DNA from: Escherichia coli
Lineage (GTDB): Bacteria > Pseudomonadota > Gammaproteobacteria > Enterobacterales > Enterobacteriaceae
Reading direction: 5' to 3' (one strand)
DNA length: 64,000 nt
NCBI RefSeq assembly: GCF_013315695.1
Contig: NZ_CP054353.1
The position numbers and the translations under genes were made by a program. A model generated the notes under the pieces. It did no database searches, was not told where the DNA came from, and worked only from the letters and a program-made list of their open reading frames with translations. Shown here piece by piece: positions 2 to 40,750 of the stretch (position 1 is the first letter of the stretch; each line of letters opens with the position of its first letter).

Positions 2-2632
2 GGTTCCGGCAGGGCGATGACATGCCGCATGGTTATTGTCATCAGCGATGTAAGCGCGGTGAAGGTGTCTGTGGACACCACGACGATTATGGCAACCCAG
101 GATTACGTTGATGATAAAATCGCTGAGCATGAGCAGTCGCGCCGACATCCCGATGCCACCCTGACCCAGAAAGGCTTCACCCAACTGGACAGCTCGGTAA
201 ACAGTAGCAGTGAGGCGAAAGCTGCAACACCAAAAGCAGTAAAAACACTGAACGATACAAAGGCCCCGCTGAACAGCCCTAAGCTGACCGGAACACCGAC
301 TGCCCCCACGGCAGCAAAAGGGGTCAACAACACCCAGATAGCGACAACCGCTTACGTGATGGCAGCAATCGCTAATTTAGTGGACTCATCACCGGACGCC
401 CTGAATACGCTGAACGAGCTGGCGCAGGCGCTGGGAGATGACCCAAACTTTTCTGCCACCATGACAAAGGCACTGGCCGGAAAGCAACCCCTTGACGCCA
501 CGCTGACAGCAATAGCAGCACTGGCTACAGCAGCTGATAAACTGCCTTACTTCACCGGAAGCGACAAGGCAGCACTGACAGCGCTGACGAAAGTTGGCCG
601 GGACATTCTCGGGAAGGCATCCGTCAGTGAGGTCATTACATACCTGGGCCTCACTAACACCATCACGCAGGCATCGGGCGCACTTCAGAAAGCACAGAAC
701 GGTAAAGACATCCCGAATAAAGCAACTTTTCTGACGAACATTGGCGTTACCAGCCAGACATTCATGAAGCACAACGGAGAACTGCCCGAAGATGCGGACC
801 TGAATACCTATGGCCCGGTTGCGGCAACACTGGGAACATGGGGAAAAGCCTCATCAACCAATGCAACGATCGCTAAAAATTTCCCGGAAGAGAGCGCTGT
901 GGGGATACTGGAAGTCCTTACTGGCGGATCATTTAACGGAACGCAAAGGTACACCTGCCGCAGCGGGAATATTTATGTTCGGACCCTGACCGCCAGATGG
1001 AACGGTACAAACGGACCATGGGGAGTGTGGCGAAACGTACAGATGGCGACCAGGCCACTTAGCACAACCATTGATCTGAATACCCTGGGGAATGCAGGTG
1101 ATATCGGCATATGGAGGAACAGTAACGCCAGTATTGCTTCATTCACCAGAAACTACCCCGAAGAAGGCAATAATGCCCAGGGGATTCTCGAGCTTATGGA
1201 AGGGGGTGCGTATGGGCGAACCCAGCGCTACACGACCATTCTCGGGAACGTGTATATTCGCACCCTTACAACAACATGGGACGCGTCCGCGCCGAAATGG
1301 GGAGGGTGGCACAGAGTCGGACATCAGTCTGACGGGGCATATCGTGATGATGACCTGAACACCATGAAAACGCCGGGCATTTACAGTGTGACCAACAAGG
1401 CAAAAAACGGCCCCATGAAGAGCGGAAATGAAAATTTGCTGGGGATCCTTGAAGTCATAAGGCGACTGGATGGCAGAACCTTTGTGCAGCGTTACACCAC
1501 AGCCGGAACGGCGACACTGACCCGGGGGCGATCTTTTGAAAGAACCTTCAGCGGTGACGCCTGGACAGAATGGCGGGAAATCTATAACTCATTCAGTCTT
1601 GCCCAGAGTCTGGGGATGGGTCGTGCGGTAGCAAGACTATCCAGCCTGGACTGGCAGACCTACGACTTTGTACCTGGCAGTTTGATCACCGTTCGGCTGG
1701 ATGACATGACCAACATTCCTGACAGCATGGACTGGGGGGTTATCGATGGCAACATAATAAATATTGCCGTTGGCCCGAGTGAGGATTCAGGTTCTGGCAG
1801 GTCAGTAATGGTATGGCGCGGTACAGTAAGTAAAGCGAACTACCGTTTCTTTATGGCACGAATTGCCGGGAATCCGGGAAATCGCACGATCACAACAAGA
1901 CGAGTACCAATTATTGATGAAGCCCAGACGTGGGGGGCAAAACAGATATTCAGTTCTGGCCTTTCAGGTGAGTTATCCGGCAACGCATCAACTGCAACAA
2001 AACTTAAAACCGCTCGCAAGATTAACGGCGTTGCGTTTGATGGTTCGGCAAATATTGAAGCGTTTCCCCCCGGCGTTCCACTGCCGTGGCCATCAGATAC
2101 ACCACCTGCTGGCTATGCCATTATGCAGGGGCAAACCTTCGACAAGGCAAAATACCCGAAACTTGCCATTGCCTACCCGTCAGGAAAGCTTCCTGATATG
2201 CGGGGATGGACAATCAAGGGGAAACCCGCCAGCGGTCGGGCGGTATTATCGCAGGAGCAGGACGGTATTAAATCGCATACCCATACGGCCAGCGTGTCAA
2301 AGACCGATCTGGGTTCGAAAACGACCAGTTCATTTAATTATGGAACCAAAACAACCAGCACAGGCGGGAGACACGAGCATGATGTTCCGCTCAAGTATCA
2401 GAACGGTGGCGGTGTAAACTTTGACTGGCTGGACGGAGCATCAAACAGTGGTGTTATTGCATACGGTAAAGTACCTGCCGCCGGTGAACACACCCACACC
2501 GTGGCAATCGGGGAGCACACTCATACCGTCCCATTGGGATCACACGGGCACGGCGTGACCGTTAACGCCACAGGCAACACGGAAAACACCGTGAAAAACA
2601 TTGCGTTTAACTACATCGTGAGGCTTGCATAA
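2..2632 (+). CDS. phage tail fibre protein, P2 gpH-like (5' end cut by window edge)
   Basis: 871-aa ORF in frame from window start; collinear with remembered P2 gpH ([42 protein letters not shown] motifs); His-rich fibre C-terminus. Confidence 0.85.
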
Positions 2633-3378
2633 TGACCTTTACAATGGAAGACGAAGCCAGAATGCTTCACGTATTTCATATTCACCCGGAAACCAGCGAA
2701 CTGACTGGAGAAAGCGACGTATATATCCCACCGTATACCGGGTTGCCCGCAGGCTGTACGACGACCGAGCCGCCACATATCCCGGAAGGGTTCGTGGCGC
2801 TTTTTGATGACGTGCGCCAGCGCTGGGAGCTTGCAGAAGATCACCGGGGAAAAGTGGTGTGGAATACGGCATCCGGGGATGAGATCGCAATTACGGAAAT
2901 CGGACCGCTACCTGAAAATACAACAACGGCAGCCCCGTCAACAGCCGCAGACAAGTTTATTGATGGCGAGTGGAGAGAAGATCGCAGTCTGGCAATCAGC
3001 ATAAAAAATAACGAGATAAACGAATGGCGAAGCACCATGGAAGCCGCGAATTACGTTTTCACGTTCAATGGTCGTAGCTGGGATTACGGAAAAGAAACCC
3101 AGTCCCGGCTGGATCCATCAGTGACAGCCGCAAAGTCCGGGTTATTACCGGAGGGATTTTTCTGGACGGATGCCGATAACAACGATATCCCGGTTACCGC
3201 AGATGAATTGATCGCACTGAGCAATGCTGCATCTGCTGCAATGTTTACCAAGGGAATGGAAATACATATCCGGCAACGGGAAATGAAAAAAGCCATAGAG
3301 GAATTACAGGACCCCGGCGAAATCATGGCATACCCGGTGGGATGGAAAACAGATACCGGAGACGGTGCCGGTGAGTGA
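2632..3378 (+). CDS. tail fibre assembly protein (gpG-like)
   Basis: 248-aa ORF whose ATG overlaps the fibre stop (TAATG); position after the fibre gene as in P2 H-G. Confidence 0.6.
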   Translation: MTFTMEDEARMLHVFHIHPETSELTGESDVYIPPYTGLPAGCTTTEPPHIPEGFVALFDDVRQRWELAEDHRGKVVWNTASGDEIAITEIGPLPENTTTAAPSTAADKFIDGEWREDRSLAISIKNNEINEWRSTMEAANYVFTFNGRSWDYGKETQSRLDPSVTAAKSGLLPEGFFWTDADNNDIPVTADELIALSNAASAAMFTKGMEIHIRQREMKKAIEELQDPGEIMAYPVGWKTDTGDGAGE

Positions 3379-3383
3379 AAGTT

Positions 3384-3408
3384 AAAACGCCCGACTGACG
3401 GGCGTTTT
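3384..3408. terminator. bidirectional rho-independent terminator between convergent G and U
   Basis: hairpin AAAACGCCCG-ACTGA-CGGGCGTTTT with A/T runs on both sides. Confidence 0.5.
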
Positions 3409-9191: not shown

Positions 9192-10337
9192 ATGAACATC
9201 ACTGAATCACTGACACTTCACATCAACAGTGCACTGGATACCGCAGAAGACACAGTGCGGGTACCGGATTTCAGTATCACACTGGAAGGGCGGGATGCCA
9301 GCCTGAAAAACATCACGCAGCGCATCATGCGTCTCACCATGACAGACAACAGGGGATTTGAGGCCGACAGGGTGACACTGGAAATCGACGACGCTGACGG
9401 TGAGGTGGTTCTTCCGGAACGCGGCACCCGATTATCGCTGACCATGGGATGGAAAGGGGGAAGCCTGACAAACAAAGGGACGTTTGTTGTGGATGAAGTG
9501 GCGCACGACGGACCACCGGATAAGCTCACCATCTCCGCGAACAGCGCGGATTTTCGCGAAGAGTTTAACGTGAAACGCGAAGTCTCCTGGCATGACGTGA
9601 CGGTGGAGCGCGTGGTGTCTGCCATTGCCCACCGTTACGGACTGAAGGCACAAATCAGCGAGATGTTGATGGATATTGAAATCGACCATGCAGACCAGAC
9701 AGAGGAAAGTGATATGTCATTCCTCACTCGCATGGCCGACATGCTGGGTGCAATAGCCACCGTAAAAAACGGGTGTCTGCTGTTCATTCTGCCGGGAGGC
9801 GGCGTCACCGCCAGCGGTCGCGCCCTCCCCTCATTCGCCCTGACCCGCTCTGACGGAGACGGCCACCGCTTTCGCATTGCTGACAGAAACGCCTATACCG
9901 GAGTGAAGGCCCACTGGCTGGATTTAAAGTTCGGTCAGAAGAAGGCCGTGAACGTGAAAAAGCGAAACGCGCAAACCACGAAGAAGCCGGAGAAAAGCAG
10001 TGCGCGGGAAGGTGGTTACATGGAAGGCGCAGAGGGTAACGTGTATGTACTGAGAAAAACCTACCCGAACGAAGAAGCCGCGCGTCGTGCAGCTGCCGCA
10101 CGCTGGCAGCAACTTCAGCGGGGCGCAGCGGAATTCAGTATCACGCTGGCGCGCGGACGTGCTGACCTGTATCCGGAGATGCACGGCACGGTATCCGGAT
10201 TCAAGAGCGACATTGACAACCAGGACTGGATTATTTCGCGCATTGAGCACGTCATCGACGACAGCGGCTTCACCACCAGACTGGAGCTGGAAGCAAAAAT
10301 CGCAGACTGGATAGCAGAGAGTAACACGACTGGCTAG
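9192..10337 (+). CDS. phage late control/tail protein gpD-like
   Basis: ATG at 9192 with GGGAGGG SD; length and position before ogr as in P2. Confidence 0.8.
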   Translation: MNITESLTLHINSALDTAEDTVRVPDFSITLEGRDASLKNITQRIMRLTMTDNRGFEADRVTLEIDDADGEVVLPERGTRLSLTMGWKGGSLTNKGTFVVDEVAHDGPPDKLTISANSADFREEFNVKREVSWHDVTVERVVSAIAHRYGLKAQISEMLMDIEIDHADQTEESDMSFLTRMADMLGAIATVKNGCLLFILPGGGVTASGRALPSFALTRSDGDGHRFRIADRNAYTGVKAHWLDLKFGQKKAVNVKKRNAQTTKKPEKSSAREGGYMEGAEGNVYVLRKTYPNEEAARRAAAARWQQLQRGAAEFSITLARGRADLYPEMHGTVSGFKSDIDNQDWIISRIEHVIDDSGFTTRLELEAKIADWIAESNTTG

Positions 10338-10378
10338 AATGAGCGCGAGCCCACCCCGTTTCAGCCAGGGGGACCATC

Positions 10379-10681
10379 ATGCATCCTTGCCCATACTGCG
10401 GAGCAAGCACCCGCACCAGAACAAGCCGCAACGCCAACGACACAGGAACAATCAGGGAGAAATACTATCAGTGCAACAACATTGAATGCAGCGCAACCTT
10501 TGTGACGCACGAGTTTGTCGTGAGAACCGTATGCCGTCCGCAACCCACCGAAGAACGGGGAATCATCCCCACAGACGCTTTCAAATCATGCCACCGGGGA
10601 AGGGAACAACTCAGCCTCCCCCTGGGCGATTGCTCCTCCCAGTCAAAAACTGTACATTACGCGCGGGTGCCTTTCGGCTGA
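10379..10681 (+). CDS. ogr: Ogr/Delta-family zinc-finger late-gene activator
   Basis: N-terminal CPYCG..RTSR...YYQCNNIECSATF zinc-finger pattern typical of P2 Ogr; ORF is longer than the 72 aa of P2 Ogr. Confidence 0.75.
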   Translation: MHPCPYCGASTRTRTSRNANDTGTIREKYYQCNNIECSATFVTHEFVVRTVCRPQPTEERGIIPTDAFKSCHRGREQLSLPLGDCSSQSKTVHYARVPFG

Positions 10682-12576: not shown

Positions 12577-13920
12577 TTAACGGTAGCGTTTTATGGGGCT
12601 ATTTTGATCCTGTTCAGCCAGCCAGGCGAGCTTTTCGCCAATCTTGCCTTCAAGGCCCCTGTTTGTCGGGAAATAATAGCGTGTTTGTGCTATTTCCGGC
12701 GGGAAATAAACCTCACCGGCAGCATAAGCGTTTGCTTCATCATGAGCGTAACGATATTCCTGCCCGTAGCCCATTTCCTTCATTAATTTCGTCGGCGCAT
12801 TACGCAAATGAACCGGCACGTCATAATCCGGACGTTCGCGAGCATCGGCCAGCGCGGCTTTAAACGCGGTGTAGACAGCGTTGCTTTTTGGCGCGCAGGC
12901 GAGGTAAACAATCGCCTGAGCAATGGCGCGTTCACCTTCCGCCGGGCCAACGCGAGTAAAGCAATCCCAGGCCGCAATTGCCACCTGCATCGCTCGTGGA
13001 TCAGCATTACCCACATCTTCCGACGCTATCGCCAGACAGCGACGCGCGACATATAACGGATCGCCTCCGGCAGTAATAATTCGCGCATACCAGTACAGCG
13101 CCGCATCGGGTGCGCTACCACGTACCGACTTATGCAGTGCGGAAATGAGATCGTAAAAGCGATCGCCTTTGTTATCAAAGCGGGCGCTACGTTCACCGGC
13201 GATTTCGGTCAGTAATTCAGGTTTCAGGACCCGCTTACCGCTATCATCGACTTCGGCCATATCCGCCATCATTTCCAGCGTATTTAACGCCCGGCGCGCG
13301 TCGCCATTCACCAGTTCAGCAATGGCGCGTCGTGTTTCATCTGGCAGAACAATATCCTGACCACCATAGCCACGGGTCTTGTCTTCCATCGCCTGAGTTA
13401 GTACTTGCTCAATATCCTTTGTACTGAGGGATTTCAGCAGATAGACACGGGCACGGGAAAGCAGTGCCGAATTAAGCTCAAATGACGGGTTTTCAGTGGT
13501 TGCGCCAATAAAAGTGATGGTGCCGTCTTCAATATGTGGCAGAAATGCATCCTGCTGGCTTTTGTTGAAACGGTGAACTTCGTCAACAAAAAGAATAGTG
13601 CGGCGACCTGCATTGCGGTTTTGCCGAGCGCGCTCAATCGCCTCGCGAATCTCTTTCACGCCAGAGGTGACAGCAGAAATACGTTCCACATCAGCGTTCG
13701 CATAGCGGGCAATCACTTCAGCGAGGGTTGTTTTGCCGGTACCCGGTGGCCCCCAGAGGATCATAGAATGCAAATGCCCGGCTTCGATAGCGCGCGGCAA
13801 CGGCTTCCCCGCAGCCAGCAAATGTTGCTGGCCGATATACTGTGCTAAATTTTCTGGCCGCATACGCGCGGCCAGAGGTTGAAAAGTATTATCCGAAAAA
13901 TCGAGCGACAGATTGCTCAC
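12577..13920 (-). CDS. rarA: replication-associated recombination protein A (AAA+ ATPase)
   Basis: 447 aa, Walker [10 protein letters not shown]; synteny serS-rarA-lolA. Confidence 0.95.
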
Positions 13921-28836: not shown

Positions 28837-29157
28837 TCAGGCTTTTTCTAGCGTACACAGCAATGGATGCTCATTCTCCCTCGCGTACTTGTTCACCATC
28901 GCCACTTTGGTTTCTGCAACCTCGGCGGTAAAGACTCCGCAAATGGCCTTCCCCTGGTAGTGAACAGCGAGCATCAATTGCGTTGCACGTTCTACATCAT
29001 AAGAAAAGAATTTTTGTAACACGTCAATAACAAACTCCATCGGAGTGTAATCATCATTGACTAATATCACTTTATACATAGATGGCGGTTTTAGCGCGTC
29101 GCGAACTTTTTCTTCCGCCAGTTGATCAAAGTCCAGCCAGTCGTTCGTTTTACCCAT
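28837..29157 (-). CDS. clpS: Clp protease adaptor ClpS
   Basis: 106 aa [42 protein letters not shown]. Confidence 0.95.
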
Positions 29158-29328
29158 TGTCAGTTATCATCTTCGGTTACGGTTATCGGCAGAACGCCCT
29201 GCCGCTGACAAGAGCTTATTTGCCTGACCAATCTACTCCACATGATAGATAACTATCATTTATAACATCTCATTGATTAGTCTTTATTTTTCATTGTGTT
29301 ACAAATAACAGCTCTGTCAAAAACAGCG

Positions 29329-29355
29329 AAATTAACTACACCATTAACTACACCG
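29329..29355. repeat. 27-bp direct repeat AAATTAACTACACCATT(A/G)ACTACACCG, left copy (right copy 40368-40394); candidate integrase binding or att sequence
   Basis: two copies, one mismatch, each followed by clustered CGAACAA motifs (29356-29395 and 40400-40510). Confidence 0.5.
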
Positions 29356-30293
29356 TTTCACGAACAATATCGAACAACCACGAACAAAGATCAACACGCT
29401 TTAACCGTTATCATTTTCCGGCTATCCGTTATGAAGCTGGTGGATGTTCCCCGATATGGGGATCCCCACCTACCGGAATTTTTGCCAGGTTAAATGTTAA
29501 CCTCTGCCCTGTTAACATTTTTACCAAAAAGGTAGTTAACATTTTTTGCACGCAACCAGATGAATCATAAAGAAAAAATCAACAACAACGCTTCATCAGG
29601 CAGTTAACATGTTAACTACTACGAAACGGTAATTTTTTCTCTGCGTGAGAGGGGGCGCGGTGTCCAGCTTATTCGTTGTTCGTGGCTAACCACTCCCCCC
29701 CCATGCCGGATTTTTTTTCCGGTTAACTGTTAATCAGGCTGGTGGGTTTTACATACCCTTGATCACCGTAATGATGATCCAGATCTGCACATTTCCACCA
29801 ATGGTGGAAAAGCCCACAGCAGGCCGCCCAGCCTCCACCAATGGGGTAAAAGCATCAACCGTAACGAAAGTCGTTATGGTTGCCACCGATACCCCAAATT
29901 TGGGTATCACGAGTAAGCCCCAAAATCTGGGTGTTACTCTTACCACCCAAACTACGGGTAGTTTCCGTAGTTTCATGGTCGAGTTGCAGATCTGCAACTC
30001 CCCCATTAACCACAGGCGAATTTCCGCCTTCGGTCATTCCTTAATCATCTGCGTAATCATAATGATTATTCAGCAAGCGCAATTTTGCGCTTTGCTTAAA
30101 GTTCAGCGAGTTACCGCGCCGACTTCCTCAAATTGAGGTTTCCGAAAATATCAGCGGGTTAGCGATTAAGCTGATCATTAATTAAACTGCGAAAATTTCG
30201 TAGTTTGTGACTGTCTTTCAGGCAGCTTGTTAACAGTCCTCAGAAGCGAGGGATGTAGCCACCCATTTTTGGTCCGTCGGGAATATCAACCAG

Positions 30294-30575
30294 TTACCGC
30301 CGCAACCGCTCCGGCTTCTTCCAGTGGTACGTTATTTTCTCCTTCTCCCGATACATCTCCACGCGGCGACGGTAGGCCAGCAACTCAAGAACTCTGGTTC
30401 GTATGTTGCGCATATCCACGCCATTAAGTTCTATACCATCACGGCGCATCACCTCCGCAACAACACGCGCATAATTTTCAGCGGTCACGCTGTCCGGCTG
30501 CGTGGCCTGTTCGTCAACCTGCTGGCTGATTCCGGCAACGCGGCGGATTAATCCCAGTATTTCGGCTTCTGTCAT
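30294..30575 (-). CDS. hypothetical protein (93 aa) next to the left cos site
   Basis: ATG with G-rich SD; no family recognised. Confidence 0.45.
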   Translation of the reverse strand: MTEAEILGLIRRVAGISQQVDEQATQPDSVTAENYARVVAEVMRRDGIELNGVDMRNIRTRVLELLAYRRRVEMYREKEKITYHWKKPERLRR

Positions 30576-30610
30576 TGTGCCCCCATCGTTCTGATAGTCT
30601 GGTGTCGTCG

Positions 30611-30840
30611 GGTCCTTCCTGGAATTATGGCCCGTTACGGGGCGGCGACCTCGCGGTTTTTCGCTATTTATGAGATTTTTTGAGGGGGTGGTTGTTGTTT
30701 AATTGTTTGGTATATCTAATTGATAAGTAAGGTAAAAATAAAATAAATACAACAACCTTACGATGTATTTTGATGTCATTAATGTGAAAAAATTCAATGA
30801 TATCAAATGGTTTTGTAAAAACACATGGTTGTTGTATCGC
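30611..30840 (+). other. lambda-type cos site, copy 1 (cosQ-like, cosN GGGCGGCGACCT at 30640-30651, cosB-like region pointing rightward)
   Basis: GGGTCCTTCC..GTTACG-GGGCGGCGACCT-CGCGGTTTTTCGCTATTTATGAG closely matches remembered lambda cos; three GGTTGTTGT repeats (30690, 30749 inverted, 30828) as candidate TerS sites. Confidence 0.6.
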
Positions 30841-31008
30841 GTATTTGATGGCGTAACAGAAAGTGATTTTTAACTTTACCGCTCTGTAACTACGGATTAT
30901 TCCATGCTGGCACGGAGAACGGCTACGGCATGACGCCACCCAGCCTATACAGCACAGTAAAGCCGATAAATTGTTAATCACGCGCAGCAATGCGTGTGAT
31001 TTTTGCAC

Positions 31009-31206
31009 ACTTCCGGTTAACGGGTACGATGTCCGGTTTTAGTGTCTGTTTTTTGCGCATGTCCGGTTCATAGAAAGCATGTTTTTATATTTTTCATATG
31101 GTTAACTTGCAGAGAAACCGGACATGGATCCCGGAAAATTTTCATAAATAGTGAAAACGCGCGAGGTCGCCGCCCCGTAACGGGTCCATATGCCGGAAAG
31201 GACCCG
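31009..31206 (-). other. lambda-type cos site, copy 2, inverted (cosN on the minus strand at 31164-31175, cosB-like region pointing leftward)
   Basis: minus strand reads GGGTCCTTTCCGG..CCCGTTACG-GGGCGGCGACCT-CGCGCGTTTTCACTATTTATGAAAATTTTCCGG, near-identical to remembered lambda cosQ-cosN-R3; three ATGTCCGGTT repeats (31029, 31059, 31116 inverted). Confidence 0.65.
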
Positions 31207-31208
31207 TA

Positions 31209-31233
31209 AAAAAAAGCCGGATTTCTCCGGCCT
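31209..31233 (-). terminator. rho-independent terminator ending the island capsid operon
   Basis: minus strand GGCCGGAGAAATCCGGC followed by T8, directly after the 137-aa gene stop. Confidence 0.55.
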
Positions 31234-31237
31234 TGTC

Positions 31238-31651
31238 TCAGATGGTTTTCAGTATGCGATCGATGTCGCCGTCATCGCCCTGGTTTCTGCCATCGTACGC
31301 CATGCCAGCTGATACGGCTTGCGGGCTGTGCATGTCCATAAAGTTTTCAAAGGCTGCGGTAAGCTCTGGTGCAACCTTTGGGCGCTCCTGCTCTATGGTC
31401 ATGTTCAGGATTTCACGAGCATTATCGACGCTAATACATGGCACGTTTGCCATTGCACGTAACAGCGGCTGATAGTCGTTATGTTCATGAAGCGCCATAA
31501 TCGCATCAGCGCGCGGCTTGTCCTGTTCTTCCAGTTTGTTGAGTTGATATACGGCCTCGTAGGTTGATAAACCTCTGTCAGCCATTGCCCGCGCTTCTGC
31601 TTTAAATTTACTCGCCAGCGGTAGCGCCATGATGCTTTCATTCGTTGCCAT
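31238..31651 (-). CDS. hypothetical protein (137 aa), last gene of the capsid operon
   Basis: ATG with AGGGGAA SD; no family recognised; candidate packaging-redirection factor by position only. Confidence 0.5.
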   Translation of the reverse strand: MATNESIMALPLASKFKAEARAMADRGLSTYEAVYQLNKLEEQDKPRADAIMALHEHNDYQPLLRAMANVPCISVDNAREILNMTIEQERPKVAPELTAAFENFMDMHSPQAVSAGMAYDGRNQGDDGDIDRILKTI

Positions 31652-31663
31652 CGTTTCCCCTGC

Positions 31664-31999
31664 TTATCGCGCCAGCGGCTGAACGGATACGCCAGAACCC
31701 GCAAAGGCGGCGCATTTTTTCGCGTCAGTGTCGGCGCTCTCAGGCCAGTTTACGGCGGCGATATTAAATATCCCCGTCTTGTAACACTGTGCTGATTTCT
31801 GCTTTGACGTGTCCACGGGGTACGAAGTCAGATAAACAGCCTTGCCAGATTCCTGACCATCCCACGGCTTAAACTCGCCATTGTCCGCCAGCATCAGCGG
31901 GGTAAATTCCTGAATAACGCCAGCATCAGCGGCAAAATGTACCAGCGTCGTGGATACCTGCTGACTGCCTGCAAATAACTCAATGTATGGAGTGTCCAT
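31664..31999 (-). CDS. head decoration protein, lambda gpD-like
   Basis: 111 aa; shares TPLMLD, WDG, YK(S/T)G.F, WPE, AFAG motifs with remembered lambda gpD (110 aa). Confidence 0.65.
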   Translation of the reverse strand: MDTPYIELFAGSQQVSTTLVHFAADAGVIQEFTPLMLADNGEFKPWDGQESGKAVYLTSYPVDTSKQKSAQCYKTGIFNIAAVNWPESADTDAKKCAAFAGSGVSVQPLAR

Positions 32000-32011
32000 A
32001 GAATCCCCCCG

Positions 32012-33067
32012 TTAACCAATTTTGACGGTAACAAATTTGCGAATATCTGCCGGAACCGGCTGCGGTGCGCTGTGCGTCTGCACGTACTCAATCGCCGGAT
32101 CGCCGTCCTCAATCCAGTTTTTCGGGTAAAACATGTTTTGCGTTGCGCCCGTTCTTACCGCTTCCTGTTCCAGGATCGCACCATAGGCCACCAGCCCTTT
32201 ATTGTTGGTGTTGCCCAGGACCAGCAAATCAGGCTCAAGGAAATATTTTTCTGTGCCGTCGCTGTCAGTGTATTTGCCGGAATAGACGATAAGGGCCAGA
32301 TCACCAAGATAGCCTTTAAAGCTCACCACTTCGCCCAGGTTTTTACATGCCAGCTCTGCGGCGGATTCTGAACCACGGGAGAGATCGTACAGTTCACGGA
32401 ATTTTTTAAAGCTGCGTAACATGCGCCATACATCAACGCCCATAATCATGACGTTTGCGGGGCAACCTGCCTGATCTGCGTATAGCTCAATGTCATAGAT
32501 TGGGTCGTGTATGTCTTTGTCCTGCTCTGACCATTTTTTACCGTCGGCCTGCTCTATGATGTTTTTTTCCGGTATCTTCCAGTCGATTTCATAGCGCTCT
32601 ATGCCTTCGCCCTCAATGATGTTTTTTCCGGTCGTTACCGCATTTACCGCCAGCCATTCCACGCGCGCTTTAATGGCGTTTATCTGGCGGCGCATGTTGC
32701 CAGTAATCAGGCGCATACGGCGGTAGGTAGGGTCGTTAAGCTGTGCTGGATCTTCTCCAGCCATGCGCATTATTGTTTTTAATGGATCGATTTCGTGTTT
32801 TGGCTTCATGTAGCCAGGGCGAATAATGCTTGTTTCGTACCCTTTATCGCGCTGAACCTGGCTACCCACCATAGGCGAACAAAACGCCGACATAGTGACT
32901 TCTTCAATATCCAGGTTATCTAACATGATGTCCTGTGTGTTGAATGTCGCCACGTTCGGGAAAAACAGCGCGGTAAACAGCGGACTGAATTTAAATTCCG
33001 CAATATCCTCGCGATTCAGGTACGCAAAAAGCTGGTTAGTGTTAAGTGCTATTGCTTTTACTGTCAT
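32012..33067 (-). CDS. major capsid protein, lambda gpE family
   Basis: 351 aa; collinear similarity to remembered lambda gpE (FKF.PLF..LFF, PGY(V/M)KPKHE, DP.YRR.R, YPKNW..GDPA, SAP); start overlaps the upstream stop (TAATG). Confidence 0.85.
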   Translation of the reverse strand: MTVKAIALNTNQLFAYLNREDIAEFKFSPLFTALFFPNVATFNTQDIMLDNLDIEEVTMSAFCSPMVGSQVQRDKGYETSIIRPGYMKPKHEIDPLKTIMRMAGEDPAQLNDPTYRRMRLITGNMRRQINAIKARVEWLAVNAVTTGKNIIEGEGIERYEIDWKIPEKNIIEQADGKKWSEQDKDIHDPIYDIELYADQAGCPANVMIMGVDVWRMLRSFKKFRELYDLSRGSESAAELACKNLGEVVSFKGYLGDLALIVYSGKYTDSDGTEKYFLEPDLLVLGNTNNKGLVAYGAILEQEAVRTGATQNMFYPKNWIEDGDPAIEYVQTHSAPQPVPADIRKFVTVKIG

Positions 33068-33273
33068 TATTCACCCCCGTGAACCTGATTCATACCCAGC
33101 GCCGCGCGTAAATAGGCGCGTACCTGCCAGCCTGTTGACGGCTCAACCATCGCCAGCGGATCAAGTCCTGCCGCAATGCCTGCTTTTACGTTCTGCTGGT
33201 GGCGTTCCTTGAGCGCCTTCACGATGTCGGGGCTTATGTACACCGAAACACCGCCTTTTTTCTCTTCAGCCAT
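33067..33273 (-). CDS. hypothetical protein (68 aa), first gene of the capsid operon
   Basis: ATG with AAGAGG SD; translationally coupled to the capsid gene. Confidence 0.5.
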   Translation of the reverse strand: MAEEKKGGVSVYISPDIVKALKERHQQNVKAGIAAGLDPLAMVEPSTGWQVRAYLRAALGMNQVHGGE

Positions 33274-33357: not shown

Positions 33358-33527
33358 TGATATTGAGTTGCGTTGCAAATTATGAAATTATTATCCCGAT
33401 CATGTGTGTCAGTGCACCAAAAAACCTCATATGCAAAAGCCCGATAAGCCACCTCTGACCTTATCGGGCTTTTTTTGGGCGCAAAAAAGCCGGATTGCTC
33501 CGGCTGTGTGGTGTGGTTCTGGTATTC

Positions 33528-34469: not shown

Positions 34470-34805
34470 GAAACATGTGCGGGTTATGCGGGTTATTGGG
34501 TTATCTTAGCGTGCTAACCATTTTTTATCCTTTTATATCAGTATTTTGCAAAACACCCTGTTTATTATTTGCCCACCACGTAACCCGCAAAACGCTCAAA
34601 ATAACCCGCAAACGGGGTTTTTTCTGCGGGTTACGCATGACTGTCCGGTGTTACTTCAGTTATTCGCCTGCGGGTTATAATCGTGCTTTTGCGGGTTATA
34701 AATGCCCTTTTGCGGGTTACGTGCGGGTTATTGGTTTCCTTTATATTCATGCACTTAATACACTTATACACAGGATAACCCGCATAACCCGCAATTTTTT
34801 TCCTC
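34470..34805. repeat. iteron array, candidate replication origin of the island
   Basis: at least 12 copies of GCGGGTTAT / ATAACCCGC in both orientations within ~330 bp of AT-rich DNA, directly downstream of the primase-replicase gene. Confidence 0.65.
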
Positions 34806-34815
34806 ACACAGGGGA

Positions 34816-36939
34816 TTAATCTTCATCATCAGGCTGGAACATCAGCACGTAAAAAACATGCTGCTTACCCCCAATCTTGCCCAGCGCCTTTTTTTTGTAT
34901 CGGCGATCGCTTCCCTTCTCCAGCATTCCGGCAGCATCCAGGGCACGCGCAAAATGCGCCGGATTAAATCCCTTCGCTATCTCACTCTCAAACACGTGCG
35001 GGAACGTGTAATAGCGCATCTCGTCATCTTCGTTGCGAATGCTCCCTTTTCTGTATCCGGCAAGCTCTTTAATCGGTAAATCACGCTCATCTGTATTGGG
35101 GTACGGAAGGTAGCGGCTAAACCCAAACGACGACAAAAACGCCTCAGCCTGTTCAACCATCTGTTTAAATTCCCTGTTACCCGTGCCGAACTCCTTCACC
35201 CAGGCATTAAAGTTATGCTGTATCGCGTCGCGGCATTCCTGCACGACCCAGCCAGTTACATGACCGGAAAGCACAAGCGCGGCCTCCAGTATGGCGAAAC
35301 GTTCACCCACGCGGTGGACCTGCTCGCCGTAGCTCTCCGGTATCAGGTTGCGCCACCGTTCGCGGCATTCCCTTACCGTATCCTTTGCCTCCTGCTGGTG
35401 GCCTGCCAGCCATTTAACCCACTCACGACCCGCCGCCCCGTGATTTGCTGTCCAGGCATCCTTTAACGCGTCAGCATGTTCCTTACCGTTGCTGTATTCG
35501 TGAAATTTCGTGGCTTTTTCCATCGGAACGTTAAGCAGTCGGACAAGCTGCCCCGCCTTAACTTTTATCCCCTCACTTTTGAGGAATGTCTCAACGTCCA
35601 TTTCTCCGGTGCTGATTGCCACCGTTCGCCAGTGTTTGATCTCCCTGTTGCCGCCATCCTTCGCCCCCTGCAATTTCCCTGAACCGTTAAACAGCGTATA
35701 AGCAGACGTTGACACTTCCCGCGCATTTCCGGCCTGGCCTATCTCATCCAGTGGTAAAAGCCCGTCATTATGGGCCTCGGCCTCATTGGCAATACCTAAC
35801 GCCGTGCCGTACCAGGTCAGCCGCTGCGCGTCCGGCTCTCCCCATAAACTTGATGCGATGTTCTGCGTGGTGGTCTTACCTGCCGATGACTGTTCGAAAA
35901 GATGCACCCCGAAGCCGTCAGCACCCACAAGGCCAATTAAAGGCGCTGCCAGTGACGTTGCCACACCCAGCATCATTGAGGCATTACCGCCAGCCAGCCG
36001 CGCCACACTCTCGCGCCAGCCCTCCGCCGTACCCGCCACGGAATAACCGTTAATCGCGGCGCTTTTTCCGGTAAACAGGATCGGTTTTTCAGAATCACCA
36101 ATGATCGAACCGTCCGGCATGATGTACGCGCCAAAATGCCAGCCCGTTGTTGTGCTTAACTGCCATTCCTCATGGCTTCCGCTTAACTGCATCCAGTCCG
36201 CCAGGATTGCCCTGTATTTGCCGTTGGTTGTCACGTTCAGCCCGTGATCTTTAAGTAACCGCCAGCCGTCACGGTCGCCGATACCACCACACGGGATCGC
36301 CATTGTGATGACTTCATGATTTGCTAATTTTTTCCAGCGCATGACGCGGTAATGCTCTTTACCGATCGTCCCCGTTCCCAGTAGTTCAAGCGGAGAACAT
36401 AACCACGTCTCAGGCCGGATAATTTCGCCTGACTGCTTATCCACTTTGGGCGTTACCCAGAAAACACCATCGGCGCGACTTTCAACGCGTGGCTTTAATT
36501 CGTCATCGCTATGGCTTCCGGTATCTTTTTTCTTTACCGGAAACTCAATAACCAGACCATCAGAAAGATTCTGCCGCTCACGGGCCAGATATTCGCGCCA
36601 GTTCTCCACCTCCTGACCGTGCATTCCATCAGGGTAAAAATTTGCATCCTGTACGCCTGCCGCCGCCAGCTTCTGACCAATCGCCTTGATCATTACTGGC
36701 TCAAGATGTCCGGCCCTGAATATGCGTACTGATTTTCGGCCTTCCGGCACAATTTGCAGCTTATCCAGTTCGGCAAGTTGTTGCTCTCCAAGCCAGACAG
36801 GAGGCACGTTATCGCCAGCCAGTCGCCCGTCCTGTTCCTGCCACTGTTTCGCATGTGCCCAGGCATCACTACCCGCAAAAATGATGACTTCCGTCATTTT
36901 GTCACGTGGCTGGTGTTTTAAATTTGGCGCTTTTTTCAT
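34816..36939 (-). CDS. primase/replicase (P4 alpha-like or PICI Pri-Rep-like)
   Basis: ~707 aa from ATG 36939; Walker A-like SSAGKTT; position next to the iteron ori; ATG overlaps the upstream stop. Confidence 0.75.
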   Translation of the reverse strand: MKKAPNLKHQPRDKMTEVIIFAGSDAWAHAKQWQEQDGRLAGDNVPPVWLGEQQLAELDKLQIVPEGRKSVRIFRAGHLEPVMIKAIGQKLAAAGVQDANFYPDGMHGQEVENWREYLARERQNLSDGLVIEFPVKKKDTGSHSDDELKPRVESRADGVFWVTPKVDKQSGEIIRPETWLCSPLELLGTGTIGKEHYRVMRWKKLANHEVITMAIPCGGIGDRDGWRLLKDHGLNVTTNGKYRAILADWMQLSGSHEEWQLSTTTGWHFGAYIMPDGSIIGDSEKPILFTGKSAAINGYSVAGTAEGWRESVARLAGGNASMMLGVATSLAAPLIGLVGADGFGVHLFEQSSAGKTTTQNIASSLWGEPDAQRLTWYGTALGIANEAEAHNDGLLPLDEIGQAGNAREVSTSAYTLFNGSGKLQGAKDGGNREIKHWRTVAISTGEMDVETFLKSEGIKVKAGQLVRLLNVPMEKATKFHEYSNGKEHADALKDAWTANHGAAGREWVKWLAGHQQEAKDTVRECRERWRNLIPESYGEQVHRVGERFAILEAALVLSGHVTGWVVQECRDAIQHNFNAWVKEFGTGNREFKQMVEQAEAFLSSFGFSRYLPYPNTDERDLPIKELAGYRKGSIRNEDDEMRYYTFPHVFESEIAKGFNPAHFARALDAAGMLEKGSDRRYKKKALGKIGGKQHVFYVLMFQPDDED

Positions 36940-37235
36940 TTCTGCTCTCTCCACGCGGCAATCATGTTTTTCAGTTCCTGTAGTTTTTTATCCACATCCA
37001 CACGTGACACATGGTTATTTCTGGAAGTCGGGATTTCCCGCCTGAATCTGCTAATAAAGATCTCCACGTTCAGCGAACTATGAAATGAATAGCCATCACG
37101 AATAAAATACACACGGTCAAACATCAGTTCTTTTACCGTTACTCTGTTGCCGTTCTTATCCAGATAAATAGCGCCGGGGATAATTTTGGGGTGTGCATAA
37201 CCGCTGGCAGTCAAGCCAGATAAATATGTTCTCAT
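36936..37235 (-). CDS. hypothetical protein (99 aa)
   Basis: ATG start; coupled to the primase. Confidence 0.45.
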   Translation of the reverse strand: MRTYLSGLTASGYAHPKIIPGAIYLDKNGNRVTVKELMFDRVYFIRDGYSFHSSLNVEIFISRFRREIPTSRNNHVSRVDVDKKLQELKNMIAAWREQK

Positions 37236-37241
37236 GATTAT

Positions 37242-37562
37242 TTATCCCCGATTTGAATCAGTATTCGCTTTCTTTATAGCATTTAATGCATTTGTGGCAT
37301 TTTCAATGGTGCACCGTAACGAAATATCAAACTGCCCAAGCATTGCCAGTAACAAACCGATATTACCCATATCAATGCGCATGGCCTTTTCGTCATATTC
37401 CTCATTTTCTGACGCATACCACATCAGGCTACCAATTGACGCAATACCCATTGATATATTGTCAGTAGCCCCATCCGCAGCGGAATAAACTTTTTTAGCA
37501 ATATCATGCTCACAGTTAAAATGCGGATTAATCAGGTACTGGTAATTGGTCATGTCAGGCAT
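37242..37562 (-). CDS. hypothetical protein (106 aa)
   Basis: ATG start; first gene of the leftward operon. Confidence 0.45.
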   Translation of the reverse strand: MPDMTNYQYLINPHFNCEHDIAKKVYSAADGATDNISMGIASIGSLMWYASENEEYDEKAMRIDMGNIGLLLAMLGQFDISLRCTIENATNALNAIKKANTDSNRG

Positions 37563-37839
37563 GGCACACCCCCTGACGAATACGGGCGGCGAATACCATC
37601 ACGCAGCCAGCCGGGGATTGCTGGCGTGCTTCCTGTTCGCTGCTGGCCTCAATGGTAATCACGCGCGGTTGTGCCGTGCTCAGGGCGATAAAACGCCAGA
37701 TGTATTTATTCAGGTTGTGCGAGTCCCGCCCTTGCGGGTGTGTGGTATGATTTAACATAGCTACCTCGATACTGTTGCTATCGTTGGTTGTTAGACGCCC
37801 TGCATGTGTTGCGAGCACTGCGGGGCGTTGCTCTTTCAG

Positions 37840-37885
37840 GTGTATTTCACCTTTGCTTTTTAATTTACTCACTGGTGAAATACAC
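37840..37885. promoter_or_regulatory. operator-like perfect 12-bp inverted repeat GTGTATTTCACC-N22-GGTGAAATACAC in a divergent promoter region
   Basis: lies between the divergent 106-aa gene and the small + strand gene. Confidence 0.45.
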
Positions 37886-37951
37886 TTCAAGCCTTTTTTT
37901 ATCATTTTTTTTGCGTATACTGACATACACCAATTTTTAGGAGATCCAGAA

Positions 37952-38131
37952 ATGGCAACTGGTGCAAAGAACGCAAAATCACAAATGACAACTGTCAGAA
38001 TCCCACATGAAGTAATGGATGATATTGAGCAACTTAAAGAACCTGGCGAAAGTACCGCTGGTTTTTTAGTTACTGCCGCAAAAGGCGAGATCAAACGCCG
38101 CCAGCGCCGCAAGGCCAAAGAATCAGAATAA
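37952..38131 (+). CDS. small DNA-binding protein, possibly ribbon-helix-helix (59 aa)
   Basis: ATG with AGGAGA SD; TTVRIPHEVMDDIEQL resembles an RHH beta-strand/helix; basic C-terminus. Confidence 0.4.
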   Translation: MATGAKNAKSQMTTVRIPHEVMDDIEQLKEPGESTAGFLVTAAKGEIKRRQRRKAKESE

Positions 38132-38188
38132 TCACTATCAGCGCCGTGGCGTGAGGTACTCCGGCGCATTGCTTTACAGGTCAGTACT

Positions 38189-38398
38189 ATGAGCAAAAAA
38201 CACCGATCAGCAGATGAGATTTTTGCAGAACAACGAAGATTGCTTTTGCAAAGTATCATTTCACGCCAGCAAGAGAAGGCGCGAGCTAAACAAATGCCAC
38301 CAAATACAGAACCAGCGCCTACAAGATTTGCGCTTGATGATTTTCTCGATAAACACCCCAGGGTAATGAAAGCAAACAAAAACCGCCCACCAGCCTGA
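38189..38398 (+). CDS. hypothetical protein (69 aa)
   Basis: ATG start; followed by a terminator at ~38441-38468. Confidence 0.35.
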   Translation: MSKKHRSADEIFAEQRRLLLQSIISRQQEKARAKQMPPNTEPAPTRFALDDFLDKHPRVMKANKNRPPA

Positions 38399-38440
38399 TA
38401 GCGGCTATCATCCCCGTGCTTATGTTTAGTGTTTCCAAAC

Positions 38441-38468
38441 TGGCGACCTCCCAAGGTCGCCTTTTTTT
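38441..38468 (+). terminator. rho-independent terminator after the rightward small-gene pair
   Basis: GGCGACCTCCCAAGGTCGCC followed by T8. Confidence 0.55.
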
Positions 38469-38488
38469 TATGTGCCATTGTCACCACC

Positions 38489-38698
38489 TCAAGCGGCCTT
38501 GCCTGAATTAATGCGTTCGCGGTTTTTGACCCACGCCACAACCTCAGACTTAACCCAGCCAACAGAACGACCGCCGAGACTGATACGGGAGGGGAAGCGG
38601 CCCTGCTTTTCCATCTCGTAACGAGTTGTGCGGCAAACGCCTGTTAGCTCTCTGCATTCTTTTTCGCGGATTACGCGATCTTCATTTATTTCACGCAT
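38489..38698 (-). CDS. alpA: AlpA-family transcriptional regulator / excisionase-like
   Basis: 69 aa from ATG 38698; helix-turn-helix pattern (CRELTGVCRTTRYEMEKQGRFP...GGRSVGWVKSEVVAWV) and position next to int. Confidence 0.65.
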   Translation of the reverse strand: MREINEDRVIREKECRELTGVCRTTRYEMEKQGRFPSRISLGGRSVGWVKSEVVAWVKNRERINSGKAA

Positions 38699-39107
38699 AC
38701 AAAAACCTACATAAAAATTACGTATATAAACTTTTCTCTTAGCTGTAGATATATGAGATCGGATATTACTTAGATTCTTTTTCACCTCTTAAATTAAAAA
38801 CACAACCATGCTAAAGGCTTTGTTCGCTAAGGTTCGTAGAAGCTCGTTAGTGTTTAAAATCGTGTCACGAGTTTTTAAGCGACGCAACAAAAAATGTCGT
38901 TATTTGGCATGACACCTGAATTACCTCATTAAAAACAAATAGATAAACCATCAGGTGTTGGAACAATCAAGAAACAGAGAATAAGAACTAAGAAGAAGAC
39001 ATTTCAAATTTTTTCAATACTTGACACATATAAATCGTCGATATTTGCCGATATTCGACGATTTATTTTAGAGGGCCATTTTTCGCAAGAAAAACAGCCG
39101 TAATTTG

Positions 39108-40346
39108 TCAAGAATTTTGGGAGTAAATTCGCGGGGTCATAACAACGATTTTTTCATCATTGTTCTGGAGAAGCTCGAGACGCTCAACCCATAGATTAAG
39201 AGCGTCACGTTTTGCATCGAGATAACGGGAGTGATTATAGACTCGTTGCATTCCTGGCAACTGGTGCGCGGTTAGCTGCTCCACTACATGAGGATCCACG
39301 CCTAAATCGTTCAGCATCGTTGTAAACGTGTGCCGGATGTCGTGCAACGTCCAGGGGGCTTGATTAATGCGTCTGTGTGCCGTTCTTCCGTACTCTGATA
39401 CAGATGATTGCCCTTTCAGTTCTCCGAGTAATAAGCCCGTGTGTCGGTTCTGCTCCACCAGCTTCGTTACGAACGGCAAGATCGCTTCCGGTATTGGCCT
39501 GAATATTGCTACCTTCGTTTTGCTGTGTTCTTTCGGCACAGTCCAGAGCATTTCTTTAAAATCCCATTCCTGGACCTCAGAGCGTCTTAGCTCAGTGGTA
39601 CGGCATCCGAAGACAATCAGGAGGCGAATCAGGGCGCTGTAGTACGGTGTGTAAATTTTTTCATCCAGGGCGCGTAGTAATTCCCCAAGCTCCTTGTTTG
39701 TTAGTACGCGCTCGCTTATTTCTGCTTTTTTCCCAACATCACCTACAACCATATCATCTAGAACGTTGGTAATTGCGTAGCGTCGTTTGCGGCAGTACTT
39801 AAGCGCCTGCTTGCATACCTGTAACAAAAATCCTGCTGATACCGGATTACGCATAGCAAGCTGATCAAAACAGGTCAGCCAGTGGCGTAGCTCGCATTTT
39901 TCCAGCGGCATAGCACCAATATGGCTGATTATGTGTGTATTGATCCGGCTTTTCAGAGATTCGTAATCTGTGCGCTTTTCCTTCGCGTACGATTCAAGCC
40001 AGTAAGTGAGCGCTTCCTTAACCGTAACAGGTGATAACGCTTCCTGTACGGTGTGATTAAGCTCATGGCGTGGATTTTTACCCTCAGCAAGCCAGGCGCG
40101 ACACTGCGACGCTTTTTCCCTGGCTGCTTTCAGGCTCAAATCTGGATAATTTCCCAGCCTCAGACGTTCAGGGGCTACCTTCCTGCCTGTTCCGGCCCTG
40201 TAAGTGAAATACCAGGTTAACAGGCCATTGGTTGAATGCCTTACGCTAAGGTTGCCACCATCATTAAAAAAGGTGTTTTTTGTGGTTGGTGATCCGCTTA
40301 ATTTTCGTAAAAGAGTGTCGCTAAGTCTATGAATTGCCCTGCTCAT
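39108..40346 (-). CDS. tyrosine site-specific integrase (P4-type)
   Basis: 412 aa; C-terminal catalytic motifs (R..TELRRSE, HDIRHTF, Y near the C-terminus); at the island edge. Confidence 0.9.
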   Translation of the reverse strand: MSRAIHRLSDTLLRKLSGSPTTKNTFFNDGGNLSVRHSTNGLLTWYFTYRAGTGRKVAPERLRLGNYPDLSLKAAREKASQCRAWLAEGKNPRHELNHTVQEALSPVTVKEALTYWLESYAKEKRTDYESLKSRINTHIISHIGAMPLEKCELRHWLTCFDQLAMRNPVSAGFLLQVCKQALKYCRKRRYAITNVLDDMVVGDVGKKAEISERVLTNKELGELLRALDEKIYTPYYSALIRLLIVFGCRTTELRRSEVQEWDFKEMLWTVPKEHSKTKVAIFRPIPEAILPFVTKLVEQNRHTGLLLGELKGQSSVSEYGRTAHRRINQAPWTLHDIRHTFTTMLNDLGVDPHVVEQLTAHQLPGMQRVYNHSRYLDAKRDALNLWVERLELLQNNDEKIVVMTPRIYSQNS

Positions 40347-40750
40347 GTTTCGAATTTCCGGTCATCAAAATTAACTACACCATTGACTACACCGAGCATC
40401 GTACAAGGGCGAACTGTGACGAACAAGGGCGAACAAGAAAAACGAAATTATCCTTTATAATCATAGAAATAAATGAGATACCTACACCATGACGAACACC
40501 CACGAACACTAACTGATAAATAACTATCATCTATCGTTGGCATCAGCGACATCTGTCACATTCCTGTCAATAGCGTTAACTGCTTCAAATTTTTGATTCA
40601 TACCTGCCCCCTGGCCCCTGTCAAATGCTTGACGGCTCGCCCTAATTCTCTAAATTGTATTTCTAGAGTTGGCGAGGTTTTGAACAGCCCCCTCTCTGAC
40701 CCCGGTTTATTCCATCTTACTTGTATAAGATTTGCGAAGGATGTCGAAGC

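Follow-up and report, generated by a model that had tools for sequence, protein, structure and literature searches.

The window analysed here, 64,000 nucleotides (64 kb) of Escherichia coli contig NZ_CP054353.1 (assembly GCF_013315695.1), contains an 11,039-bp island inserted between clpS and cspD which, judged by its gene content, is a cos-type phage-inducible chromosomal island (PICI; a phage satellite) of the EcCICFT073 family. Its packaging region holds two opposed lambda-type cos sites whose TerS-binding regions (cosB) belong to different types, and each type also occurs in lambdoid phages or prophages, directly beside the phage's own terS gene. We consider it probable that the island is served by helpers of two packaging specificities through these two phage-native cosB regions, and that it does not need Rpp, the protein that acts together with TerS in EcCICFT073. 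That both sites are cut and used, and which phages act as helpers, we infer from sequence comparison.

The packaging region is built on a perfect inverted repeat of exactly 25 bp, CCCGTTACGGGGCGGCGACCTCGCG at 30631..30655 (+) and its exact reverse complement at 31160..31184 (-), embedded in 72-nt arms (30609-30680 and 31135-31206) that are 83% complementary. Both repeat copies include the lambda cosN 12-mer GGGCGGCGACCT, which has two exact copies in the window, at 30640..30651 (+) and 31164..31175 (-); packaging would be directed to higher coordinates from the left copy and to lower coordinates from the right one. A third cosN-like site, with one mismatch, lies at 13598. In shuffled windows, cosN with at most one mismatch occurs 0.34 times on average, and 0/100 shuffles reach three such sites. 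The cosQ core GGGTCCTT(T)CC is present in both copies and starts 30 nt upstream of cosN on the left and 31 nt upstream on the right; the right distance equals that of lambda and the left is one base closer. The left cosQ-like element, GGGTCCTTCCTGG at 30610..30622 (+), aligns with lambda cosQ GGGTCCTTTCCGG and is identical to the cosQ flank of EcCICFT073 cos2. Its counterpart on the right (31193..31205, -) is identical to the lambda cosQ core and shares its flank with EcCICFT073 cos1.

Between the two cosN sites lie two different repeat triplets. The left cosB (30690..30835, +) contains GGTTGTTGT at 30690-30698 (+), 30749-30757 (-) and 30827-30835 (+), with one further, unrelated copy in the window at 16340. 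All three copies of ATGTCCGGTT in the window (0.12 expected) are found in the right cosB (31029..31125, -), at 31116-31125 (-), 31059-31068 and 31029-31038. The shuffle statistics rule out a chance origin of the cosN copies and repeats. The initial annotation had read the region as a helper-dependent island's pair of opposed lambda-type cos sites, each with its own set of cosB repeats, and this description was correct; the coordinates and sequences it gave for the 25-bp inverted repeat, cosN, the cosQ-like elements and the repeat triplets all hold.

Alignment of both copies to lambda (NC_001416) supports their assignment. Lambda bases 1-12, i.e. cosN, are matched at 12/12 positions by either copy, and the adjoining segment (+13..+45) is identical at 27/33 positions on the left (30652..30684, +) and at 31/33 on the right (31131..31163, -). 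From +46 onward, identity to lambda is near chance (61/215 and 53/215 for left and right, respectively). Part of the conserved segment, GTTTTCACTATTTATGAAAATTTTCCGG, had been labelled R3; it corresponds to lambda +17..+45, between cosN and R3, and the label was wrong because lambda R3, AAGGCGTTTCCGTTCT, starts only at about +48 (NC_001416; PMC6092414 supplement). The R cores of lambda are located at +53 (+), +114 (-) and +155 (+), with a spacer of 78% A+T. The island repeats are located at +51 (+), +110 (-) and +188 (+) in the left cos (spacer 84% A+T) and at +51 (+), +108 (-) and +138 (-) in the right cos (73% A+T). The first two repeats thus share the R3 and R2 positions and orientations of lambda, R2 inverted, as well as its AT-rich spacer. 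In contrast, the third repeat is shifted in the left cosB, and shifted and reoriented in the right one, and the CGTTTCC cores of lambda are unrelated to the island repeat sequences. Judged by this placement, the triplets are true equivalents of the R elements.

Over 178 bp, a stretch that takes in the three ATGTCCGGTT repeats, the right cos shares 95% identity with phages PhiR12_1 to _5, and every repeat is retained in this type of phage (PV340549-PV340554). In the PhiR12 phages, the matching cos is flanked by Rz and Nu1, as is canonical for cos, and the same repeats also precede terS, of the class that we term A, in a prophage of strain 2015C-3121. Beyond +45, the left cosB has no counterpart in the phage database. 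It is present, however, in 298 of 5,426 complete E. coli genomes. In lambdoid prophages of strains O111:H- 11128, SCU-171, FDAARGOS_1058 and UTAK-18, it is placed directly upstream of terS, between the lysis genes and terS. In strains 142 and STEC383 it is found in PICIs, at the position of cos2. Between the island and the O111-type prophages the left cosB is ~91-99% identical. The three GGTTGTTGT repeats are exact in 7/8 aligned loci while the spacers have diverged; in the O111 prophage the first repeat reads AGTTGTTGT, one base off.

The TerS proteins encoded beside the two types of cosB fall into two classes as well. Their C-terminal parts are near-identical between class A (PhiR12 type) and class B (O111 type), whereas the N-terminal 25 residues are unalignable. 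Within class B, the N-terminal ~54 residues show one substitution across four prophages despite divergence of the C-terminal part (72% overall identity). The Pfam family Phage_Nu1 matches class A only from residue 49 and class B along the whole length; neither TerS class is named in NCBIfam, nor are the small island proteins. Taken together, these matches identify the right cosB as PhiR12-type (TerS class A) and the left as O111-type (TerS class B), both phage-native. The pattern follows the lambda/21 paradigm, in which a cosB of the order R3-I1-R2-R1 is bound by the winged helix-turn-helix of TerS (Nu1) (PMC9026076). As between lambda and phage 21, each class consists of a matched cosB and TerS N-terminal domain, with the TerL-binding part in common. 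By this correspondence, it is a specificity swap of the lambda/21 type, with one cosN/TerL system predicted to serve matched pairs of cosB and TerS DNA-binding domain that can be interchanged. The proposal of the initial annotation that two different cosB regions could give access to two helper terminase specificities is supported to this extent, that is, by distinct phage-native cosB regions and differing TerS N-terminal domains in comparison.

The phages of both types differ from the island in having a single cos between the lysis genes and terS-terL, where the island has two sites back to back and no terminase genes. The terS that directly follows cosB in the phage counterparts is absent downstream of either island site, and tblastn detects no TerS in the 64-kb window. 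The same two features, no terS after either site and two opposed sites on one replicon, also set the island apart from lambda. As a side observation, in the prophage of UTAK-18 (L016) and the PICI of STEC383 (L014), the GGTTGTTGT cosB is joined, around positions 860-900, to a different cosN region (…CACCGGGGGTCGGTGGACGCG…), which implies that cosB and cosN modules recombine independently and that a PICI follows this phage variant as well.

The presence of two opposed cos sites in a PICI is already known, and the novelty implied by the initial annotation therefore falls away: in this PICI family, such sites were published, deleted and tested in 2018-2019 (PMC6092414, PMC6739421). EcCICFT073 contains a pair of cos sites, termed cos1 and cos2, both functional on plasmids (Fillol-Salom et al. 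2018, PMC6092414). In transfer by lambda and phi80, deletion of cos1 lowers the yield, deletion of cos2 raises it and double deletion abolishes it (PMC6092414). The cosB of cos1 is recognised by an RppA-TerS heterocomplex, and no phage cosB could be identified in EcCICFT073 (Fillol-Salom et al. 2019, PMC6739421). The deletion primers fix the names: cos1 lies between a gene for a 137-amino-acid (aa) protein and rppA, and cos2, with ATGTCCGGTT, lies beside a 93-aa gene (PMC6092414). The helpers tested with EcCICFT073 were lambda, phi80 and CFT073 phage 4, PhiR12-type phages not being among them. The later account by Murialdo and Feiss (2022) covers the Rpp-type site only, describing it as a single R3, N15-like, and mentions neither cos2 nor inversion (PMC9026076).

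In the CFT073 locus (L006), two head-to-head cosN copies, at 2559(+) and 3298(-), enclose rppA (144 aa). The window island shares with it a head-to-head pair of lambda-like cosQ-cosN sites and the gene order PerC, 68-aa gene, capsid, decoration, 137-aa gene, cos pair, 93-aa gene; its flanks and cos2 block are 94-96% identical to CFT073 at the DNA level, with synteny kept. The right ATGTCCGGTT cosB of the window island corresponds to the cosB of EcCICFT073 cos2 (94% identical). Unlike in EcCICFT073, however, this cos2-type cosB occupies the place of cos1 and points the same way as the capsid genes, while the second position is taken by the phage-type GGTTGTTGT cosB, which is absent from CFT073. 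Both rppA and the Rpp-specific, cos1-type cosB (GGTGACACCACCACCAC) of EcCICFT073 are missing. Thus, while the EcCICFT073 papers found no phage cosB, both cosB regions of the window island match phage sites.

Compared with CFT073, the region between the two sites is rearranged. The cos2 block of the window (31206->30941) corresponds to CFT073 L006 3340->3075 with 94% identity, inverted relative to the flanking genes. It is followed by a 72-nt rpp 3' remnant in direct orientation and then by the class-B cosB. The right cos is a hybrid, with a cos1-type cosQ flank outside and a cos2-type cosB inside, and the switch falls within the 25-bp core, i.e. in the right arm of the inverted repeat. Of rpp, only the last 22 codons are left (30879..30944, -, in the orientation of the island genes), matching RppA residues 123-144 in tblastn (73% identity, E=9e-5); at the DNA level, window 30945->30874 is 84.7% identical to the CFT073 rppA 3' end (blastn). 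No full rpp is found in the 64-kb window by tblastn. On the other side of the junction, the distal flank of the right cosB (30941..31028, +) holds an rpp stop region and a terminator-like hairpin (30979-30996), inverted relative to the island genes; the same two elements adjoin cos2 in EcCICFT073. The rpp stop-codon region thus occurs twice, inverted, around the 22-codon remnant (30941-30965 versus 30874-30900), forming a palindromic scar at which the two cos2-type blocks join.

The 93-aa and 137-aa proteins were considered as possible Rpp substitutes and rejected, as neither matches the RppC structures in the PDB; as a control, CFT073 RppA matches the RppC crystal structure 6hlk with E=5e-31. 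A 114-aa open reading frame in the spacer (30664-31008, -) is taken as spurious because it lies in AT-rich cosB DNA and RefSeq has no annotation for it. A promoter scan of the inter-cos spacer found none. The terminator-like matches of the scan include the known terminator that follows the 137-aa gene and the rpp-derived hairpin. An Rfam search of 29100-31400 at permissive thresholds returned one sub-threshold chance match, outside the cos region.

Related islands show other variants at the cos pair, some of them with Rpp lost or replaced. In strain 2012C-4221 (L018, NZ_CP027437.1, 1792-2001), a PhiR12 cos and phage leader have been captured, and the start of terS (9 codons) is joined to the end of rpp (~60 codons); in the chimeric reading frame, the DNA-binding domain of Rpp is replaced and the dimerisation part kept. 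In the O121 strain 201805972 (L012, NZ_CP119441.1, 2600-2910), only one cos is present; its cosN is disrupted (GGGCGGGAGCGGCG...) and is followed by a PhiR12-type cosB and then by a 24-codon fossil of the terS 5' end. In O157:H7 9234 (L019, 2214-3218), two head-to-head cos sites enclose a full-length terS (180 aa) with a class-B-like N-terminus, and the outer, second site has a third type of cosB with three CAGATCC-like repeats. This island belongs to the 90-95% identity band that comprises 517/595 genomes with the 137-aa gene. The ground plan of the sampled islands is [cosQ.cosN -> cosB - terS/rpp - cosB <- cosN.cosQ], and the window island is a variant that has lost the inside gene.

For the window island, we propose the following course of packaging. 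A helper TerS of either class would bind its cognate cosB on the replicating island concatemer and position TerL, which would nick the adjacent cosN. DNA would then be taken up from cosN towards cosB, so that the right site would package leftward and the left site rightward, and the opposed site would be passed in an orientation wrong for termination. Packaging would stop at the next co-oriented cosQ-cosN with the head full; four 11.04-kb units make 44.2 kb, ~91% of lambda. These steps are drawn from established lambda biology, as summarised in PMC9026076. The earlier idea that opposed packaging starts would send the chromosomal flanks into capsids is not supported: lambda-type maturation needs a co-oriented second cosN downstream, and neither site has one within the window. 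The 44.2-kb estimate for a tetramer fits the phage-sized packaged DNA reported for EcCICFT073 (PMC6092414).

Several observations weigh against packaging through two native cosB regions. The scan for integration host factor sites (consensus WATCAANNNNTTR) gave only one-mismatch matches in the left cosB and none in the right; lambda I1 likewise has one mismatch. Removal of cos2 from EcCICFT073 raised transfer by lambda and phi80, so that with helpers that are not its cognates an opposed second cos can carry a cost. The Rpp-less architecture is rare, at ~8/5,426 complete genomes with one continuous match over no less than 93% of the query, and it bears a deletion scar in the form of the rpp remnant; on both grounds, the island could be a crippled derivative. 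Carried to its end, this would mean that deletion of rpp and the Rpp-specific cosB left a decaying relic, its cos pair being leftovers that no longer give efficient transfer. The illegitimate-looking junction at 30941-30945 fits such a history, as does the finding that cos1 together with RppA drives efficient lambda/phi80 transfer in EcCICFT073 (PMC6092414, PMC6739421). Yet both cosN copies and all six repeats are intact, and the module is 97-98% identical (97.4-97.8% for the cassette) in at least three backbones that differ in integrase, replicon and integration site, three cases being confirmed directly: the clpS/cspD site with the DUF927 primase (the window and strain CEA601S, L001), the thiM site (ST130, L011), and the yejO site in strain 135 (L017), which has another integrase and a RepA-helicase replicon. 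The flanking genes are less alike, with 89.7-91.5% for the 93-aa gene and 90.1% for the 137-aa gene in strain 135. In strain 135 (9873-10545), both cosN copies carry the same G-to-T change (GGGCGTCGACCT), from which it follows that the two arms changed together (concerted evolution), whether by gene conversion or through selection for a helper with the variant cosN. Moreover, the independent lineages L012 and L018 also exchanged the Rpp-type cosB for a PhiR12-type one. The spread and conservation of the module and the joint change of its arms point to constraint, to recent exchange or to the two combined rather than to simple decay, though they do not prove function; we hold the relic to be unlikely. 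Another possibility is that the cos sites chiefly divert helper terminase from phage DNA, the opposed layout being incidental. Rpp-carrying relatives interfere with helper packaging (PMC6739421), and a multicopy island with exact phage cosB should have to compete for TerS. However, a complete cosQ-cosN-cosB that is cut on a concatemer should also package the island, so that diversion would overlap with packaging by helpers of two specificities, and as the chief role of the sites it appears quite improbable.

The initial annotation had also raised the possibility of an invertible segment. Strain WP4-S17-ESBL-08 carries EcCICFT073 at the same phoQ site and with identical RppA, but with the entire cos1-rppA-cos2 cassette flipped; the flipped cassette (L010, NZ_AP022049.1 2945575-2950823) lies at 2583-3395, versus 2528-3340 in CFT073 L006. 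Among complete genomes, 68 have the CFT073 orientation and 15 the flipped one, which means that inversion between cos arms has happened. A programmed switch, with the inter-arm segment flipping often and altering packaging direction or expression, would agree with these two orientations, with the inner 813 bp being 100% identical between flipped and unflipped relatives, and with the cos1/cos2 hybrid in the window. But the flipped genomes (15/15) show no difference over 1,201 bp, as would be expected from a single inherited event, and form one clonal, stably inherited group that shows no sign of a fast switch. What stands of the earlier suggestion is therefore inversion on an evolutionary timescale. 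Invertase systems such as Hin, Gin and Fim likewise have a segment between inverted repeats in both orientations among genomes; they use recombinase sites, however, whereas the repeats of the cassette are terminase recognition sites, and no dedicated invertase is encoded by the island, whose sole recombinase is the integrase. The window-type cassette is found in one orientation only, and orientation should not matter for whole-unit packaging from circular or concatemeric DNA. A programmed switch thus seems very improbable. The same low rank goes to a trans-acting factor, i.e. Rpp or TerS supplied by a co-resident PICI in place of direct recognition by the helper TerS. Many genomes do hold several related islands (places per genome reach 5-12), and O157-type islands encode a full TerS with a DNA-binding domain resembling class B. 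Nevertheless, the Rpp-type cosB is absent from the window island and both of its cosB regions match phage sites beside the phages' own terS, so that no extra factor is required, and we would hardly expect one to be at work.

More speculatively, the inter-cos cassette (cosB, terS/rpp, cosB) might itself be a unit mobilised by terminase, which would then act as a site-specific recombinase. Cutting of both sites would free a fragment with the same 5'-GGGCGGCGACCT overhang at each end, each end being complementary to both outer ends, and the fragment could be re-ligated either way round, or swapped between co-resident islands or with phage ends. Such shuffling would account for the flipped EcCICFT073 cassette, for hybrid sites that switch within the 25-bp core, for a cassette that across three backbones is better conserved than its flanks and for the repeated capture of phage cos-terS ends. 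We regard it as improbable all the same.

Other satellites offer a partial parallel. Cos-type Staphylococcus aureus pathogenicity islands (SaPIs), such as SaPIbov5 and SaPIbov4, and the satellite P4 use the helper cos and helper terminase and have no terminase gene of their own. We know of no evidence in SaPIs or P4 for two cosB classes or for head-to-head sites flanking terS or rpp, and their sequences and hosts are unrelated. Two putative cos sites have also been noted in SaPIbov4 (PMC6092414).

The remaining features of the island agree with its classification. It is bounded by 73-nt direct repeats with the core AAATTAACTACACCATTRACTACACCG, at 29324..29396 (attL side, between clpS and the first island genes) and 40363..40435 (attR side), 11,039 bp from start to start, and its size lies in the 10-15 kb range of PICIs. 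A tyrosine integrase (39108..40346, -), an AlpA-family regulator (38489..38785, -; Pfam Phage_AlpA, E=2e-15) and a replication module of its own (34478..36954) are present, together with genes for SSB and PerC. The replication module consists of a DUF927 primase/helicase (34816-36954, -) and, downstream of its stop codon, a cluster of TGCGGGTTAT iterons (34478-34737) that is the probable replication origin of the island. The genome of CEA601S, otherwise 99.9% identical, differs by indels of ~90-100 bp in 37235-38489, the regulatory region separating the DUF4222 gene from alpA, judging by coordinate offsets.

Next to the left cos lies the 93-aa gene (30294..30575, -; phrog_1561, PHROG E=3e-57), the ortholog of the gene beside EcCICFT073 cos2; its 5' end and the adjacent cos arm are 96% identical to CFT073 L006 3268-3420. 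On the other side, an intrinsic terminator (31213..31234, -), a 9-bp stem followed by a T run, lies after the 137-aa gene and upstream of the right cos, and is also present in CFT073. The 137-aa gene itself (31238..31651, -; phrog_1999) is found in 590/5,426 genomes. The capsid module proper (31664..33273) is made up of a D-like head decoration protein (31664-31999, -) and a lambda E-like major capsid protein (32012-33067, -), both supported by PHROG and by the RefSeq annotation of a near-identical genome, and a 68-aa gene (33067-33273, -). A second copy (89% identical) of the terminator hairpin that follows the 137-aa gene (31210-31236) lies at 33483-33509, ~210 bp upstream of the 68-aa and capsid genes, so that the capsid operon is bracketed by one repeated element. 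The 137-aa protein is weakly similar to head maturation proteases in their C-terminal part (phrog_53 positions 494-567). In lambda, the scaffold Nu3 is encoded in the C-terminal part of the protease gene; given the weak similarity, the 137-aa protein is possibly a Nu3-like scaffold, and together with the E-like and D-like genes it may constitute a partial head-assembly module. Membership among capsid-forming PICIs (cf-PICIs) was rejected, as the island has no terL, terS or portal gene, only capsid, decoration and the possible scaffold-like protein. In EcCICFT073, the homologs are the putative capsid gene c1499 and head decoration gene c1500, and deletion of the capsid and decoration homologs left transfer and interference unaffected (PMC6092414).

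As far as the indexed literature shows, the points that go beyond what is published are that cos2-type sites are phage-native, that Rpp has repeatedly been lost or replaced and that the cassette can invert. They suggest an answer to the published question of why these islands have two cos sites: the second site would be a regular phage cosB taken from a lambdoid lineage in which TerS carries another DNA-binding domain. In the window island and its relatives, Rpp would have become dispensable, leaving two phage-native sites of different specificity. If this is true, satellites widen their helper range by collecting the packaging sites of helpers, besides reprogramming TerS, and the cos region is a recombination hotspot at which satellites and helpers exchange specificity modules. 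This would bear on predicting the mobilisation of islands by phages, including islands that carry virulence genes, and on the design of cos-based delivery vehicles.

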